Source of the DNA: a virus
Direction: 5' to 3' (one strand)
Length of the DNA: 64,000 nt
Virus genome (UHGV): UHGV-0363627
The position numbers were made by a program, and so were the translations under genes. Positions 22,793-30,453 of the stretch are shown piece by piece (within the stretch, counting starts at the first letter, position 1; each line of letters opens with the position of its first letter). Below the pieces are notes generated by a model. It was given only the letters and a program-made list of their open reading frames with translations. It made no database searches and had not been told where the DNA came from.

Positions 22793-24163
22793 TTATTCTG
22801 AACTACCAAAACTTTGAACATAATATTTTTCATTCTCTGTAATATTTTTTATTTCATGATTTTCATTAATAGGTTTTAGTCTACTACAATCATTTTCTTC
22901 ATTTGTACCTATCATATATAATTTATAGATTTTTATTTTATCAGTATTAAAAGTAAGTTTATTATATCTATATAGAAACTCTTTTATATTATAGCAGTTT
23001 GGCGACATGAATATAATCGCATTACACGTAATTTCTAGACTGTCTGACGAACAATTTTTAATGGATAATACTCTAATATTGTTTGAGTTGAAAGATTGCA
23101 CAGAAAGGCTGGAAATGGCTTGTGCGGCGAAGTTTTTTACTTCTCCTTTTCGATTACCAGTCTTATATCTTATAAAATCTCCAACATTTTCATCATAAAC
23201 AGGTCTAGCTTCAATATCATTATGAAATTCACCACATGATATATTATTTTTATTAAGAGTTTTATAAACTTCTGTTGCAAGAATAGTATTCTTACTAACT
23301 ATTATTACTTTCTTATCTTTTAATTCTCCATTTAATAAATCTATAACTATAGGTATCTTATTTACATTATTATTTACTAAATTATTACGTTCACGAAAAA
23401 TATTATAAGCAGTAGAACATCTTTCTTCTATACTAATAGGATTAAATAAATCATCTATTTGCTTATTAAAAGGTATAGTTACATCAAGATGTTCATTCCA
23501 ACCATTATATTGAGCAATAGATAATCTTACAGCTTCAGCAGATTGACCTGTAGTTTTATCTCCTACTCTAGCACGATTTATATTTTCAAGACTACCAAAT
23601 ATATTAATAGTTTTATTTATATAATCACTATATTTATCATATAATTCTTTTTCATCCTGTCTAGCAAATTGTACTCCAATGTGAATTTCCTCTACGGGCA
23701 AGCTATATTTAGCTGCATATTTGGCAGCATAATCAGCTTGATTTAATATAGGAAAATATTTATAAAGATAAGCACGAGAATCAGGATGAATTTTATCTGT
23801 TGTTATAATAAATAGTCCATATTTAATTATACTATTAATATAATTTGCTTGATACATATCAGTTAATCCAACATAAAAAGCTATATCATAATTATAATGT
23901 ACACCTATTTTTACATAAACAGAAGTAATACAAGCATAATTATTAGAACTTACATTGTTTTCTTTTAAATAATTCACAATACTAGTTCTAACATCATAAT
24001 CTTTAACTACAATAAGAGCTTTTATATTTGGATTTTTCTCTATACTTCTTTTCATTATATATTCTATTAGTATAGCAGGATTATAAGGTTCAAGAAGTAT
24101 ACAACAACCTTTACATTTATTTTCTCTCCATTTATTTGCTATATCAATATATGTTTTATTCAT
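22793..24163 (-). CDS. hypothetical protein, possibly a degenerate helicase-like replication accessory protein (456 aa). Contains a motif copy (SLPVEE) next to a tandem AAKY-AAKY duplication.
   Basis: Long ORF overlapping the polB stop by 8 nt. No clean Walker A. Confidence 0.35.
   Translation of the reverse strand: MNKTYIDIANKWRENKCKGCCILLEPYNPAILIEYIMKRSIEKNPNIKALIVVKDYDVRTSIVNYLKENNVSSNNYACITSVYVKIGVHYNYDIAFYVGLTDMYQANYINSIIKYGLFIITTDKIHPDSRAYLYKYFPILNQADYAAKYAAKYSLPVEEIHIGVQFARQDEKELYDKYSDYINKTINIFGSLENINRARVGDKTTGQSAEAVRLSIAQYNGWNEHLDVTIPFNKQIDDLFNPISIEERCSTAYNIFRERNNLVNNNVNKIPIVIDLLNGELKDKKVIIVSKNTILATEVYKTLNKNNISCGEFHNDIEARPVYDENVGDFIRYKTGNRKGEVKNFAAQAISSLSVQSFNSNNIRVLSIKNCSSDSLEITCNAIIFMSPNCYNIKEFLYRYNKLTFNTDKIKIYKLYMIGTNEENDCSRLKPINENHEIKNITENEKYYVQSFGSSE
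23685..23704 (-). repeat. Motif copy (R) ATTTCCTCTACGGGCAAGCT in CDS 22793..24163
   Basis: Consensus with one extra T. Confidence 0.8.
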
Positions 24164-25178
24164 CTACATCATCAAATAAAGTATTGTACATTCCACTAAA
24201 TTTACGAATTTTACTCTTTCCTTTACCTTTAGGAGTAATACCTAACTTAATCGGGTCTATTAATTTCATACATTCATTATAATAATATTTAAAATCAATA
24301 TTTCTTAAACTAATATCAGTATCATCTAAAGTATTTACAACACAAACTTTAACTCCAGCTGCCATTCTTGACCTACTATTAGTAATATTATGAACTTTTT
24401 CTATTGTATATCCATCATTACTAATATAAAATCTAACATATCGCTGACAAACTATTTTTGTAAGTATTCCATTAACAACTTTTGTTTCTTCAACATGAAA
24501 TTGTCTACCAACATTTTGAGTCATACAAAAATCAAGAATATTAGTAGCTTTTTGAAGAGTTTCCATTATAGGAACTTTATTAATGAAATATTCATAAACA
24601 GCTTTAGCAACAATAGGTTTATCATATCCTTTTTGTAAGTCAATACGATACATATCTGGGTTCATTGCTCCTTTAAATTCTGTCTTTAACTTTCTAACTT
24701 CTTTCTTTTCTTCTCTAAATAAGGCTAAATAATTATTTACATTGCTAGCTATAAGACAATGAAGAATATCACTATCTGCTTCCATTTTAGTTTTTTGTTG
24801 CCATCTAGTTGTTATATCATTAAACAATGCTTTATCTTTTTCATAAACTTTTACCATAATACCATCTGTATTAGCAGATATAATATGTATATTATTAAGT
24901 TCAAGTTCTTCACAAAGCATAAGCATCATTAATTGACCATTTATAGTAACTCGAAGAGTAGCAAGTCTATCATAAAGTGGACTATTTTCATCTCCAAATT
25001 TACCATATATACTATTAATGACAATTTTTAATACAAGTGCAAGCACATCTTTAGGAATACCATCAATTATAGCTTCTTCGCTATGCTTAACAGTAACACG
25101 AGTATCTTTCATCCATTGTATTAGATTACGAAATGCACTCTCAATCATATGAGCAGGAGCAACACTATATGCAGCCAT
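24156..25178 (-). CDS. family-B DNA polymerase, C-terminal exon (palm motifs B and C)
   Basis: KIVINSIYGKFG (motif B, Kx3NSxYG) and ISANTDGIMV (motif C-like). Confidence 0.65.
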   Translation of the reverse strand: MAAYSVAPAHMIESAFRNLIQWMKDTRVTVKHSEEAIIDGIPKDVLALVLKIVINSIYGKFGDENSPLYDRLATLRVTINGQLMMLMLCEELELNNIHIISANTDGIMVKVYEKDKALFNDITTRWQQKTKMEADSDILHCLIASNVNNYLALFREEKKEVRKLKTEFKGAMNPDMYRIDLQKGYDKPIVAKAVYEYFINKVPIMETLQKATNILDFCMTQNVGRQFHVEETKVVNGILTKIVCQRYVRFYISNDGYTIEKVHNITNSRSRMAAGVKVCVVNTLDDTDISLRNIDFKYYYNECMKLIDPIKLGITPKGKGKSKIRKFSGMYNTLFDDVDE

Positions 25179-25510
25179 AATACTAGGATAATACGACGCG
25201 CATTAACATCATAGCTTTCACTATGAACCTGACTATATCTTAATCTTATAACAAGATTTCTCGCACTTCCACATTTATTAATAATGTGTACTCCTTTCGG
25301 ATAGTCGATGAACTTTACTATTATTATATTTCACAATATAATGAGTAGTCTTAGCTGCTGATTGTCCATTATTACGATACTTAGGAATATTATTCCATAT
25401 ATCATCTGTTATTTCTTTTCTACTTTCGTAACTATTGCCATTTAGATTTTCATCTTCTGTTTTAGTAATAACAGCTTTAGGAGTTTCCAGCAATTCACGA
25501 GATTACGACA
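25179..25510 (-). other. Group I-like intron in the polB gene, without an intact homing-endonuclease gene. Boundaries are approximate.
   Basis: 332 nt separate two collinear polB ORFs. It shares five ordered conserved blocks with the helicase intron (AATTGCTGGAAACTC, AGATGAAAATCTAA, GACAATCAGCAGCTAAG, AAAGTTCATCGACTATCC(C)GAAAGG(G)AGTA with GAAA tetraloop hairpin, TAAGATATAGTCAGG). Confidence 0.6.
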
Positions 25511-26786
25511 CTGCGTCACTTATGTCAAAATGATAAATTGTAAAAGCATTATCTCTTTGTAGCTTGCCCGTAGAGGAATTGCTAGATATATCCCATTCAG
25601 TAGTACTCCATATTTCCATTGGTCTATCTTTACTATGAAGTCCACCTGTAGCTAGAGTATAATTAACATCACCAATAATAACTTCTTTCTCAAAAGCATC
25701 TTTGCTAACTCTATATAATGTAGTCTTTTTTATTTCTTTAAGTAGTTCTTGTAACTGTGGAGTTTTAAATTCAACACAATCAAATATAATCTTACCTAAA
25801 TTCATAGCAGTTCTTTTAGTTCTTCCATCTTTCCATTTCTCATATGGAATACCACTATATTTAGTATAAAACTTTTGAAATAAAACATTAGCCATATTAC
25901 TACGACTACTATTAAGAACATCTACTTTATAAGAAGCAGAAACAGCATATCGAGATTTAATTTCATTAGGATTAAGACGAACAATTTCACAAACAATAAA
26001 TACATCATTTTTATTATAATGCATCATATCTGGAATATATTCATCTATTATATATCTATCCCATTTATCAATTACATTGGTGAGCTTTTTATAATCATAA
26101 CCTTTATATCTTGTATCTTTTGCATAATAGTGATAATCTTTATCACATATATCAGGTAATTCGTATTCAAGAAGTTCATACCATTGTAGATTTATACTAG
26201 TTTGTTTTAAGCCTTTTGGAATATATTTCTTTTCTCCAGTTTTACTATCAACAATAGTTCCAGCTTTATTCAAAGCAAACACTTTCATTACATCTACACC
26301 TTTAAACGGCAATGGATATTTTCTTAAACTTCTTAATAGAAAATCATTTTTAGCACCATCTTTATTATCTTGTAATTCAATTATCTTTTTTGATGTTTCA
26401 TAAAGCCTTGTAATAAGTTCTTTTGTAGTATCTGTTTGACCAAAATACATTAATAAAGCAGCAATCATAAGATTATCATAGCTTTGACTATTATAACCAT
26501 ATAAATCACTACGAGGATAAAGTTCATTAGCTTTAAATCCATTAATATATTCAACCATTGAGAATAATTGACTATCATCTGTATCTGTAATATAAAATTG
26601 TTTACATTTTACAACATCAAGTCTTTGTAATAATTCTTTAACAGATATTTTTTGAACAATAGGAATTGCTTTTCCTTTACTATCTACAACATCTTTAAAA
26701 GTATCAAGATAACTAGCTAAATCAATAAATGTTATCGAAAAAAAGTTAGGAAGTACTTCCACATCATAACATTCTATTCTTATCAT
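25503..26786 (-). CDS. family-B DNA polymerase, N-terminal exon (3'-5' exonuclease domain plus start of motif A)
   Basis: Exo I-like YDVEV. Ends ...HFDISDAVS immediately before a TAA. The downstream ORF continues the polymerase with AAYSVAPAHM, consistent with an intron in motif A (D..S.Y). Confidence 0.6.
   Translation of the reverse strand: MIRIECYDVEVLPNFFSITFIDLASYLDTFKDVVDSKGKAIPIVQKISVKELLQRLDVVKCKQFYITDTDDSQLFSMVEYINGFKANELYPRSDLYGYNSQSYDNLMIAALLMYFGQTDTTKELITRLYETSKKIIELQDNKDGAKNDFLLRSLRKYPLPFKGVDVMKVFALNKAGTIVDSKTGEKKYIPKGLKQTSINLQWYELLEYELPDICDKDYHYYAKDTRYKGYDYKKLTNVIDKWDRYIIDEYIPDMMHYNKNDVFIVCEIVRLNPNEIKSRYAVSASYKVDVLNSSRSNMANVLFQKFYTKYSGIPYEKWKDGRTKRTAMNLGKIIFDCVEFKTPQLQELLKEIKKTTLYRVSKDAFEKEVIIGDVNYTLATGGLHSKDRPMEIWSTTEWDISSNSSTGKLQRDNAFTIYHFDISDAVS
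25561..25579 (+). repeat. Motif copy AGCTTGCCCGTAGAGGAAT in polB exon (codes SSTGKLQ), 56 nt from the intron boundary
   Basis: Exact consensus. Confidence 0.85.
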
Positions 26787-27552: not shown

Positions 27553-27797
27553 AATATTTTAATATTTGATGGTCTCACATAATAATAAGTTTTAAACATA
27601 GCAGATTGAATAATAAATTTATCACCTTCATAATTATCATTATAAGGGTCAGTCATCCATCTGTCTGTGACATAATTATAAAATCCTATAATAACATATT
27701 CAGTATTGCGATAACCAACAATCATTCCTTTATCTGCAAATTCATTTATATGACATTCTTTACCAAGATTATTTTTTACAAATTCTATATTATCCAT
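27549..27797 (-). CDS. small hypothetical protein (82 aa), paralog of 27313..27552
   Basis: See paralog above. Tandem duplication. Confidence 0.4.
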   Translation of the reverse strand: MDNIEFVKNNLGKECHINEFADKGMIVGYRNTEYVIIGFYNYVTDRWMTDPYNDNYEGDKFIIQSAMFKTYYYVRPSNIKIL

Positions 27798-28767
27798 AAC
27801 ATATATACAATTTATTCTTACATCTACTACAAGCTACATACAATCGTCTTAACAAATCATCTACATTACTATAAGCATTACCATTTTTATCATAACACAT
27901 ATCATTTATATCAACAAATACATTATCATAAGTACTACCTTGGCTTCGATGACTTGTTAAAGCAAATCCATAATCTATATCTCTTGAAATAATAATCTTA
28001 CCTGTATAATCAACTACATTTTCAAGCAAAAGATACTTTCTCTTAAACTCATAATATTTCTTCCAACAACTAGAACGAGTTTTAATATCAGCATTTTTTG
28101 CTTTATTAATAAGATAATTTACCTCATCACAATATGTTTTCAATGTATAAGCATCAAAATGATTTATAACAAATAAAGGCTTAGTAACAGCTCCACCATG
28201 TATAGCTTGAAACCTTATCATAAAACCTTTAAAATTATAAGTTTCATCTTCATAATTAACTATGTCTTTAATAATATATTCTTCACTATTATTAATAATA
28301 ATATCATTAAAATCATCAACAATAGTTGTATAAGACATTATCAAATCATTTCTATTAATTATAGTCTTATCAGCATTTCGAACAATAGTTTGACGAATAA
28401 CTTTATTCCAATAAGATACAGCATTATTAGTATATGCTACCATACGATACAAATCAACATTTGTTGCAAAATTTTCATCAGAAAATCTATTCATAACAAC
28501 ATTTGTAAATTCTTGTCGATTATATACTTTATATCCAACATCACCATTTATATTTTCTCTGTTTTTATAAATATAACTAAGAAAATTAAATGTTCTATGT
28601 TTTATATCATCACGTAGCATTGCCAACAATTCAGTAACAGGATTATCTTTTTCTTGTCGTACAATTTCTTTAAGTTCGCTAGTCTTATAAGCATTTTTAA
28701 AAGCAGTACTAACTTTCTCATTTACAGGACTAAGCTGATTTGCATCCAATAATCTTATAACTTTCAT
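27790..28767 (-). CDS. Dda/RecD-like SF1 helicase, C-terminal exon
   Basis: C-terminal SF1 motif TSHRSQGSTYDNVFV and ...YVACSRCKNKLYI. Confidence 0.6.
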   Translation of the reverse strand: MKVIRLLDANQLSPVNEKVSTAFKNAYKTSELKEIVRQEKDNPVTELLAMLRDDIKHRTFNFLSYIYKNRENINGDVGYKVYNRQEFTNVVMNRFSDENFATNVDLYRMVAYTNNAVSYWNKVIRQTIVRNADKTIINRNDLIMSYTTIVDDFNDIIINNSEEYIIKDIVNYEDETYNFKGFMIRFQAIHGGAVTKPLFVINHFDAYTLKTYCDEVNYLINKAKNADIKTRSSCWKKYYEFKRKYLLLENVVDYTGKIIISRDIDYGFALTSHRSQGSTYDNVFVDINDMCYDKNGNAYSNVDDLLRRLYVACSRCKNKLYICYG

Positions 28768-29964
28768 TATAAGCCTGACTATATCTTAGTTGCATTATCA
28801 ATATCTATATAAGGTAAAAATTGTTCTTTATATTTTTTATCAAGTTTAAAAAAATCAACAAAAACATATCCTTTATGACTCTTTTTTGTACCGTTTATAA
28901 CTTGACTGACATTTTTAGGTGTAAAGCCATTATCTCTAAGGTCTTGTGAACCATAAAATATTCTAAATTCATGTTCATCATTATTTGTTATAGCTAAAGA
29001 AATACCAATATAAATTCTATTATTAGTTTTACCTGGCATATATTCATAATTTTTATCAGTATCATAATTATTTTTATAAATCCATTGATAGCCTTTATGA
29101 ATATTTCTTTTTCCTGAACAACAATCAGCTATACATCCAGCGTAAAAATGCCCAATTTCTTCCGCTTCTGTAGCTGATGCCCATTCTTTAACAATATTAC
29201 CTAAAATATCTATTTGTAAAACAGGTTTTGAATTAGGATTAAGTTCATATTTATTTCCATAATTACCATTTTCTTTACCAATAAAATGTTTGTTATAAAA
29301 ATAATTTTCATTTCCTTTTTTCCCAATACAAGTATCACCTTCATTTCCATTAACTAAACAACCACCATTTTCAATACATTTGTATTTAGCTATTAATTCT
29401 TTTTCTATAGTTATACTATCTTCAATAGATATATCTATTTTATTTATAACTACTTTAACTTTAGAAACATCTTTAACTTTATTTTTCCAAAGATTATTTC
29501 TATTATTAAAATTAAATGCTCTACTAATAGTACCTTGACCTACATAAAATGGTAGTTCTTCATCATTATAATAATGAAGATAAACACAAATTCTTTCTAA
29601 ATCTTTAAAAGAATAATCATACTTACTAGGAATATCTTTAACGCTATTAATATTCCTTTTCTTTTTGTTAATTGTAAAATTAAATGTAACCATATATTTA
29701 TAATTTAAAAGTTCATTACAAATATATGGCGAAAATTGATAATTTGCAACTTTCTCCGTTTCGATTTTTAAAAAATCTACTCCCTTTCGGGATAGTCGAT
29801 GAACTTTGTTCATTTCATAATTCACATTATTACTTAGAACCTTAGCTGCTGATTGTCATATATTATTAGTTTTTCAAGCATTCACACTTAGATTTTCATC
29901 TTATGTTGTAGCACTAATAACTTCACGAGTTTCCAGCAATTAGAAGAATTTTATATCGGCAATG
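28768..29964 (-). other. Group I-like intron carrying the GIY-YIG homing-endonuclease gene, splitting the Dda-like helicase gene. Boundaries are approximate.
   Basis: The helicase N-terminal ORF ends at TAG 29965-29967 and the C-terminal ORF resumes at 28767. The intervening 1.2 kb holds the HEG and the same conserved blocks as the polB intron. Confidence 0.6.
28779..29825 (-). CDS. GIY-YIG homing endonuclease encoded inside the helicase intron
   Basis: VYLHYYNDEELPFYVGQG (GIY-10aa-YIG spacing) plus downstream conserved R and N. C-terminal region resembles I-TevI-type DNA-binding modules. The 5' end of the ORF overlaps conserved intron core sequence. Confidence 0.7.
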   Translation of the reverse strand: MNYEMNKVHRLSRKGVDFLKIETEKVANYQFSPYICNELLNYKYMVTFNFTINKKKRNINSVKDIPSKYDYSFKDLERICVYLHYYNDEELPFYVGQGTISRAFNFNNRNNLWKNKVKDVSKVKVVINKIDISIEDSITIEKELIAKYKCIENGGCLVNGNEGDTCIGKKGNENYFYNKHFIGKENGNYGNKYELNPNSKPVLQIDILGNIVKEWASATEAEEIGHFYAGCIADCCSGKRNIHKGYQWIYKNNYDTDKNYEYMPGKTNNRIYIGISLAITNNDEHEFRIFYGSQDLRDNGFTPKNVSQVINGTKKSHKGYVFVDFFKLDKKYKEQFLPYIDIDNATKI

Positions 29965-30453
29965 CTATTCACCGATGTAAAGAACTTTAATTTTTCTATC
30001 AGCGCAATATTTATTAATATAAGTAACTAATGCTTTATTAAGCATACTAGCTTCATCAACAATAAGAACTTTTACATTAGCAACTTTAGGCGGACCAATA
30101 GGTTTAAAAGCAGGCAAATTAGGGTCAAAATCTTCAATATTAGTATCAATTCTAAACCCAAAAGCAGCTTGTATAGTAGTTACTTTTCTACCTCCTGTAG
30201 CATTAGACAATATACGACAAGCTTTATGTGTTGGAGCAGCAAGATAAAACATACTTGAACCATATTTACTATGCTCAATTATATAATTTGTAACAAAAGT
30301 TTTACCACACCCTGCTGCGCCAGATAATGCTTGAACATTTTTAAGTTTATTAAAATCTTCAGCTATAAAACTTATTATATTATCGACAGCTTTTTCTTGA
30401 CTAGGAGTAAAATTAGGTTTAATAGCTTTTTGGTCTAAACTAATCATATTCAA
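29965..30453 (-). CDS. Dda/RecD-like SF1 helicase, N-terminal exon (Walker A)
   Basis: LSGAAGCGKTF Walker A, LIVDEASM Walker B/DEAD-like. Confidence 0.65.
   Translation of the reverse strand: MNMISLDQKAIKPNFTPSQEKAVDNIISFIAEDFNKLKNVQALSGAAGCGKTFVTNYIIEHSKYGSSMFYLAAPTHKACRILSNATGGRKVTTIQAAFGFRIDTNIEDFDPNLPAFKPIGPPKVANVKVLIVDEASMLNKALVTYINKYCADRKIKVLYIGE

Follow-up and report, generated by a model that had tools for sequence, protein, structure and literature searches.

The window analyzed here is the whole 64,000-nucleotide (nt) stretch of UHGV virus genome UHGV-0363627, in which the gene for a family B DNA polymerase (PolB) is interrupted. We conclude that the interruption is a 321-nt group I intron (25201..25521, minus strand) inserted in motif A, that it probably splices to yield one polymerase of 769 amino acids (aa), and that it has lost an endonuclease gene from its P8 helix. 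We put the probability of this reading at about 0.9. The assignment is based on a match to the Rfam model RF00028, on the junction seen in the intronless polymerase of a relative (uncultured phage cr110_1), on 11 related contigs that carry an insertion at the same site and in the same phase, and on the fold. All features of the intron and of the genes discussed below lie on the minus strand of the window.

The gene appears as two collinear open reading frames (ORFs), one of 427 aa at 25503..26786 and one of 340 aa at 24156..25178, separated by a gap of 324 nt. The initial annotation had assigned both to one polymerase, and this proved exact: the upstream ORF matched positions 56-352 of the PHROG 1252 DNA polymerase profile (N part), and the downstream ORF matched positions 369-653 (C part). 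On its own, the C-part ORF scored 22.0 against Pfam DNA_pol_B (PF00136), under the cut-off of 23, while the spliced protein reached 24.6. The sequences given previously for the upstream C terminus (...HFDISDAVS*) and the downstream N terminus (MAAYSVAPAHM) were correct as ORF termini but not as exon ends, as the splice sites are displaced by about 20 nt. Exon 1 (25522..26786) covers the N-terminal/exonuclease region, extends to the Asp of motif A, and was delimited by the ORF, PHROG 1252, and collinearity with the cr110_1 PolB. It ends in CAT TTT GAC AT, i.e., His, Phe, Asp, and 2 nt of an Ile codon. Exon 2 (24156..25200) starts with C GCG TCG TAT TAT CCT AGT ATT ATG, which completes the Ile codon and continues with ASYYPSIM; motifs B (KIVINSIYGKFG) and C (SANTDG) are likewise encoded by exon 2.

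When the exons are joined at 25522|25200, 321 nt are lost and the reading frame is preserved. The resulting 769-aa product could be aligned end to end with the PolB of cr110_1, which is encoded by a single unbroken gene of 768 aa, and the junction HFDIASYYPSIMA (HFDI|ASYYPSIMA) is the same in both proteins. At the RNA level, the ligated exons are predicted to read CATTTTGACAT|CGCGTCGTATTATCC. The insertion point lies after base 2 of the codon next to the catalytic Asp of motif A, and the spliced PolB has the full motif, DxxSxYPS (HFDIASYYPSIM). The idea that splicing rebuilds motif A was therefore right, but the motif is formed by HFDI|ASYYPSIM and not by the DxxxxY segment that had been assembled from ...SDAVS and MAAY. 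As anticipated, the spliced protein could be aligned to motif A of known polymerases, with the junction stretch matching LDFRSLYPSII of an archaeal-type PolB. Motifs A (DIASYYPS), B (KIVINSIYG, as part of NSIYGKFG), and C (ANTDG) follow the exonuclease domain in this order, as in family B DNA polymerases, and the protein aligns to PDB entry 8s84_A and to pol alpha. ASYYPSI is untranslatable without splicing because an in-frame TAA lies two codons ahead of the 3′ splice site and no ATG, GTG, or TTG precedes 25178. With the true intron at 25201..25521, the last six codons of the upstream ORF (SDAVS*) are intronic, constituting the P1 loop and the guide sequence, and the 22 nt before the downstream ATG are exonic. 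A search with the ligated junction returned 0 matches to an intronless allele of the window's exact lineage.

The intron starts with AAGUGACGCAGUGUCG and ends with UGUUAAUG, with the terminal G at 25201. A local scan of 901 nt covering the gap reported RF00028 as the only Rfam match (50.9 bits against a gathering threshold of 50; E = 7.7e-12; model positions 1-253 of 253), in agreement with the group I-like character that had been proposed for the spacer. The spacer folds better than 100 of 100 shuffled sequences (z = -2.64 for the minimum free energy [MFE]), and its unconstrained MFE fold recovers most of the proposed helices. Scans of the whole 64-kb window, run at the gathering threshold and at E <= 0.01, yielded no match at all, and a scan of contigs L002 and L003 (13.6 kb) was likewise without a match. 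Scans of 0.9-1.6 kb, on the other hand, recovered both this intron and a sister intron in a helicase gene (see below) with E values of about 1e-10 to 1e-11. The whole-window scans miss the two AT-rich introns because of speed filters. Thus, the Rfam search put forward in the initial annotation succeeded only when performed locally; on the whole window, it would wrongly have spoken against an intron.

Splice-site signals are found at both ends of the intron, namely, P1, P10, and the terminal G. P1 (25507..25526) was read from the sequence: exon GACAU (25522..25526) pairs with the guide GUGUC (25507..25511), so that a U·G wobble (U25522·G25511) is positioned at the 5′ splice site, as is characteristic of P1. 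The P1 loop contains the intron strand of P10, GACGC (25513..25517), which pairs with GCGUC at nt 2-6 of exon 2 (25195..25199). Both guide pairings covary in relatives. P1 is GACGU/GCGUC in L003 and GGGACAU/GGUGUCCC in L124, and P10 shows compensatory variants at the same site, namely, GACGC/GCGUC in the window, GACGA/UCGUC in L003, GAUGC/GCAUC in L124, and GAUGA/UCAUC in L132.

The core was placed from the Rfam alignment, from covariation, and from the MFE fold. The 5′ strand of P3, UCUCGUG (25496..25502), pairs with GUGCGAGA (25259..25266) in the Rfam alignment. The P4-P5 domain (25356..25492) is closed by P4, formed by UGCUGG (25487..25492) and UCAGCA (25356..25361). Its P5 extension holds P5a (CUGUUAUU/AAUAACAG) and two hairpins capped by GAAA tetraloops (25444..25455 and 25420..25431). 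An additional, lineage-specific hairpin (25376..25403) is also part of the extension; this 45-nt extra hairpin is restricted to the window, L125, and L146. The P6/P6a/P6b arm (25312..25355) is supported by covariation in P6a and P6b. The 5′ strand of P7, GACUA (25302..25306), pairs with UAGUC (25231..25235), ahead of which lies J8/7 (AAGAUA, 25236..25241), and P7 fits the Rfam consensus GACUA...AAGAUAUAGUC. The segment between P7 and the 3′ strand of P3 (25270..25301) contains P7.1 (UCC-GAAA-GGA, 25292..25301) and P7.2 (CACAUU...AAUGUG, 25270..25288), both of which can be seen in the sequence as well as the MFE fold. This pair of helices identifies the polB intron as a subgroup IA type, which is IA2-like by the visible helices alone. 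P8 is a short hairpin of 6 bp (AAUCUU-GUUAU-AAGAUU, 25242..25258), and the P9 hairpin (UCAUAG-UGAAAG-CUAUGA, 25209..25226) is followed by the intron's 3′ end.

To evaluate these helices, relatives were collected with a two-block core pattern, which retrieved 39 viral contigs; among the matches listed for a 15-mer from P4 (AATTGCTGGAAACTC), most were to unrelated phages, and the two-block pattern was used instead. The window intron and those of 11 related contigs share the exact motif A codon phase, and 12 of 12 end in G. For the family alignment (30 distinct members), helices were set by hand from the Rfam alignment, as RNAalifold misdrew P7. The proposed helices were paired in 89% of the cells, compared to 35-46% when the 3′ partners were slid by 1-3 columns. 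Compensatory changes were observed in most pairs of P3, P5, P5a, P5b, P6a, P6b, P8, and P9. P3 was paired in 99% of the cells with 5 of 6 pairs compensatory, P6a in 100% with 4 of 4, and P9 in 91% with 6 of 7; for P6b and P8, all pairs (5/5 and 6/6) were compensatory. P7.1 reached 69%, which is an underestimate because the columns of its 3-bp and 4-bp variants were misaligned.

Several observations weigh against this interpretation. The RF00028 score is barely above the gathering threshold, and the whole-window scans were empty. No P2 helix is evident in the polB intron. P4, P6, and P7 are invariant in the 30 members and therefore contribute no covariation evidence. The family alignment was derived from endonuclease-trimmed sequences that were cut by rule, with the helices defined on one member, and the proposed structure was thereby somewhat favored. 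Direct observations comprise the sequence and its fold, the covariation, the exact position of the junction, and the presence or absence of the endonuclease ORF between near-identical genomes; from these, we infer that the polB intron is probably self-splicing.

Comparison with a close relative points to the origin of the short P8. The polymerase exons of contig L125 (IMGVR_UViG_3300045988_110116, 88.7 kb) are 99% identical to those of the window (12 mismatches in 1265 nt and 7 in 1045 nt). Its polB intron shows 2 mismatches in 321 aligned nt and contains an additional 757 nt within the P8 loop. Both mismatches lie close to the intron's 3′ end, within or next to the hairpins P8 and P9, and the P3-P7 core pairings are unchanged. 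Within the 757 nt lies a 232-aa ORF that could be aligned lengthwise with the endonuclease of L003, a GIY-YIG enzyme according to Pfam (PF01541, 39.5 bits). Judged from this comparison, the window intron is in all probability a recent, clean 757-nt deletion derivative, and its P8 hairpin would be the scar of the lost endonuclease gene. L146 displays a distinct, partial endonuclease deletion in which the leader of the endonuclease and the whole stem of P8 were retained. Other short endonuclease-free copies at the motif A site were found in L135 and L132 (279 nt each) and L146 (353 nt). At the corresponding locus of L125 (7752..13579, reverse strand), the helicase gene is uninterrupted, and the helicase and PolB are 97-99% identical to those of the window at the amino acid level. 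As L125 shows the opposite state at both loci, near-identical phages differ in both introns.

The window polB copy does not encode a homing endonuclease, the hallmark of a mobile intron, and the absence of an intact endonuclease gene had been recognized correctly. Its only ORF (25278..25493, 71 aa, TTG start) reads through P4-P7.2 and has no Pfam or PHROG match. In every family member outside the window/L125/L146 lineage, this frame contains one to three stops while the nucleotides are conserved, and the KVHRLS of its translation corresponds to the conserved AAAGUUCAUCGACUAUCC. These stops show that the ORF is not a gene. The earlier suggestion that it is not a real gene was thus borne out. 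Its alternative, a remnant of an endonuclease, was rejected, since the endonuclease of the relatives is located in P8 and the frame has stops.

We propose the following mechanism. In the pre-mRNA, exon GACAU would pair with the guide GUGUC to form P1, and an external guanosine bound at P7 would attack after U25522. The adjacent guide GACGC would hold the start of exon 2 through P10, and the freed exon 1 would then attack after the terminal G (25201), so that the ligated exons would specify a single 769-aa polymerase in which motif A is intact. For the history of the element, we infer that it arrived by endonuclease-driven homing into the conserved motif A site and that the window copy later lost the P8-loop endonuclease gene by the 757-nt deletion. 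It would now be an immobile but splicing-competent passenger.

The two ORFs could also represent a genuinely split polymerase, in which both are translated separately and the polypeptides assemble without RNA splicing, the spacer being merely intercistronic. There is precedent for such an arrangement: in the Aeromonas phages 25 and 44RR, two ORFs, 43A and 43B, encode PolB (gp43), and the products co-purify and are active (PMC2988022). In these phages, as in the window, a family B polymerase gene is broken into two ORFs by an insert, and the downstream ORF of the window has its own ATG at 25178. However, the Aeromonas polypeptides assemble without splicing, whereas the ribozyme of the window would restore a single frame and separate translation would destroy motif A, leaving its Asp on one chain and ASYYPSI untranslated. 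Furthermore, the spacer constitutes an entire group I ribozyme whose P1, P10, and terminal G are positioned precisely so that the motif is restored, and the guide-exon covariation in relatives makes sense only if splicing is selected. We therefore consider a split polymerase extremely improbable.

A decaying intron, which would splice inefficiently after endonuclease loss and leave the polymerase gene as a pseudogene or defective variant, would be in keeping with the missing endonuclease gene, the reduction of P8 to a 6-bp hairpin, and the marginal Rfam score. Yet the length of the P8 loop is not critical in group I introns, and other short-P8 copies without endonuclease are present at this site (L135, L132, and L146). 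Only 2 of 321 positions differ from the endonuclease-bearing L125 copy, with no effect on the P3-P7 pairings. Both exons are intact and 99% identical to those of L125, and PolB is the only replicative polymerase noticed in the window. Decay is thus very unlikely. The likelihood that the insertion is of a different kind (an intein or a group II intron) or is an artifact of assembly or frameshifting is negligible, as nothing beyond the interruption of the gene speaks for it. The insert is out of frame and contains stops and is therefore not an intein, the local Rfam scan reported RF00028 alone, and the occurrence of an identical insert in the independent contigs L125 and L146 argues against an artifact.

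The sister group I intron (28747..29970, 1224 nt) interrupts the SF1/Dda-like helicase gene (27790..30453) at motif III. RF00028 matched it in a local scan in two parts, scoring 47.6 bits over the 5′ part and 21.4 bits over the 3′ part, on the two sides of a long ORF. Its P1 is AUCGGU/GCCGAU, its P10 is GCAU/AUGC, and the junction KVLYIG|DANQLSPV matches VIGDDSQLSPV of cr110_1 gp69. The conserved blocks that the initial annotation had noticed in the two interruptions were confirmed: AATTGCTGGAAAC, GTTCATCGACTATCC, and AAGATATAGTC are each present in the window in just two copies, one in the polB and one in the helicase interruption. Over the 149 P4-P7 positions that they have in common, the cores show 75% identity, and they belong to the same ribozyme family. 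The GAAA hairpin is indeed present in both introns, as UCC-GAAA-GGA in polB and UCCC-GAAA-GGGA in the helicase, so that P7.1 has 3 bp in the former and 4 bp (UCCC/GGGA) in the latter; the polB copy, however, reads GGAGTAC and not GGAGTAG.

P8 of the helicase intron contains an endonuclease-like ORF (28779..29693, 304 aa). Its start is most likely the ATG at 29693 (MVTFNFTINKKK...) and not the GTG at 29825, from which a longer version of 348 aa reads through the ribozyme core. The protein matched the Pfam I-HmuI NUMOD-like family (30.7 bits) as well as PHROG 20162 and 3855. It contains NUMOD-type DNA-binding repeats, and its DNA-binding region resembles that of the L003 GIY-YIG endonuclease. 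No Pfam, PHROG, or PDB family matched the catalytic domain; a GIY-YIG-like motif (VYLHYY...PFYVGQG) was noticed by eye only.

The N terminus of the family's intron endonucleases, M-V/I/P-T/Q-F-N-F..., usually followed by a Lys-rich stretch, is shared with a resident protein of the phage (30440..30862). This conserved homologue of cr110_1 gp70 is encoded just upstream of the helicase and has no Pfam or PHROG match. The shared peptide was compared in the window, L125, L142, L152, L160, and L001. The first residues of the endonuclease and the resident protein covary by genome, with MP in both proteins of L160 and FNFSLS in both proteins of L125. Synonymous differences between the codons of the peptide suggest that selection acts on the protein. 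These similarities hint that the endonucleases captured an expression or targeting signal of the host phage.

Using tblastn, members of the intron family were located at four sites: PolB at about residue 423 (motif A), PolB at about residue 493 (NSIYGK, motif B), the helicase at about residue 161 (motif III), and the helicase at residues 429/430 (...SQG|ST...). A further group resides in unrelated phages. The PolB motif B site (after NSIYGK.G) and the helicase ...SQG|ST... site are used in the crAss-like phages L099, L126-L128, L130, L133, L134, L140, L147, L149, L151, L155, and L157. In L157, the PolB match is divided into four pieces by about three insertions, and its helicase contains one more. 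A blastn search with the P3-P6 core revealed 68-79% identity to sequences of Staphylococcus, Clostridium (c-st/D-1873), Listeria, and Bacillus phages; the matches are introns or unannotated spacers, and one of the phage sequences is annotated "Group I catalytic intron." The cores do not cluster by insertion site, and that of the helicase intron is 88% identical to PolB motif A introns of other phages versus 84% to other helicase motif III introns. It is conceivable, although we regard it as rather unlikely, that one ribozyme family moved repeatedly among at least four catalytic-motif sites in two crAss-like replication genes and that its endonucleases took over an expression or targeting signal from the host phage. 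If both were true, the family would be a compact natural system for studying change of intron site and endonuclease domestication in the phages that are most abundant in the human gut.

The window is a crAss-like phage genome, Intestiviridae/Crudevirinae-like. The nearest GenBank record is uncultured phage cr110_1 (Intestiviridae, Crudevirinae), with about 75% nucleotide identity. The neighborhood of the two introns is a replication module that comprises a RecT-like protein, an SNF2-like ATPase, PolB, UDG, and the SF1 helicase; no tRNA genes were found in the window.

Group I introns in core genes of crAss-like phages, including PolB, were described by Yutin et al. in 2021 (PMC7886860). They were detected by way of the protein domains of endonucleases, chiefly in the Delta and Zeta groups; the well-studied alpha-gamma genomes were said to lack mobile-element insertions, a remark that was repeated in a review. 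The virus order, the kind of element, and the target gene class are the same here, with introns in conserved replication genes and often with endonuclease ORFs. In contrast, the window polB copy resides in an Intestiviridae/Crudevirinae-like genome and has no endonuclease, and both the RNA structure and the exact site, which that study does not give, are provided here. As its endonuclease is absent, the copy would be missed by a protein-domain screen. GenBank records of the related phages cr3_1 and "Rudgehvirus jaberico" annotate a split PolB or helicase with an endonuclease between the halves. In cr3_1 (L002, NC_055874; 1890..5255), PolB is split much further downstream into coding sequences (CDSs) of 611 aa and 176 aa with an annotated homing endonuclease in between; the core pattern of the present family is unmatched at this split, which may contain a different intron. 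In "Rudgehvirus jaberico" (L162, OQ198719; 2357..4696), the helicase consists of two CDSs with a "GIY endonuclease" in between, and the locus was matched by blastn with the core of the window intron. This cultured crAss-like phage of Bacteroides cellulosilyticus is a possible experimental system.

The IA2 introns of phages (T4 td, nrdB, and nrdD and those of Twort-like Staphylococcus phages) have P7.1 and P7.2, an endonuclease ORF looped out from a peripheral helix, and insertion sites in catalytic-site codons of DNA metabolism genes. The window polB intron resembles them in P7.1/P7.2, in the P8 endonuclease of its relatives, and in its catalytic-site insertion; it differs in the host gene, in the host phylum (it belongs to a Bacteroidota phage), and in that no P2 is evident. 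Self-splicing group I introns that interrupt a replicative polymerase gene and spread by an intron-encoded endonuclease also occur in the Bacillus phages SPO1/SP82 and in T7-like phages, where the polymerases belong to family A and the endonucleases are HNH nickases. In the window, the polymerase is of family B and is interrupted at motif A, and the endonucleases of the relatives are of the GIY-YIG type (confirmed by Pfam for L003).

The polB intron is thus a well-known kind of phage element, tidy but ordinary, and it leaves the knowledge of group I introns themselves unchanged. Its consequences concern the phages. The polymerase and the SF1 helicase would each be misannotated as two fragments, endonuclease-free introns escape protein-domain screens, and whole-contig Rfam scans miss both introns of the window in AT-rich DNA. 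The intron differences between near-identical phages could be used as a strain marker, and they could provide evidence that phages co-infect and recombine in the gut. Taken together, the window and L125 would represent a snapshot of the homing cycle, with gain of the intron and loss of its endonuclease, within one crAss-like lineage.

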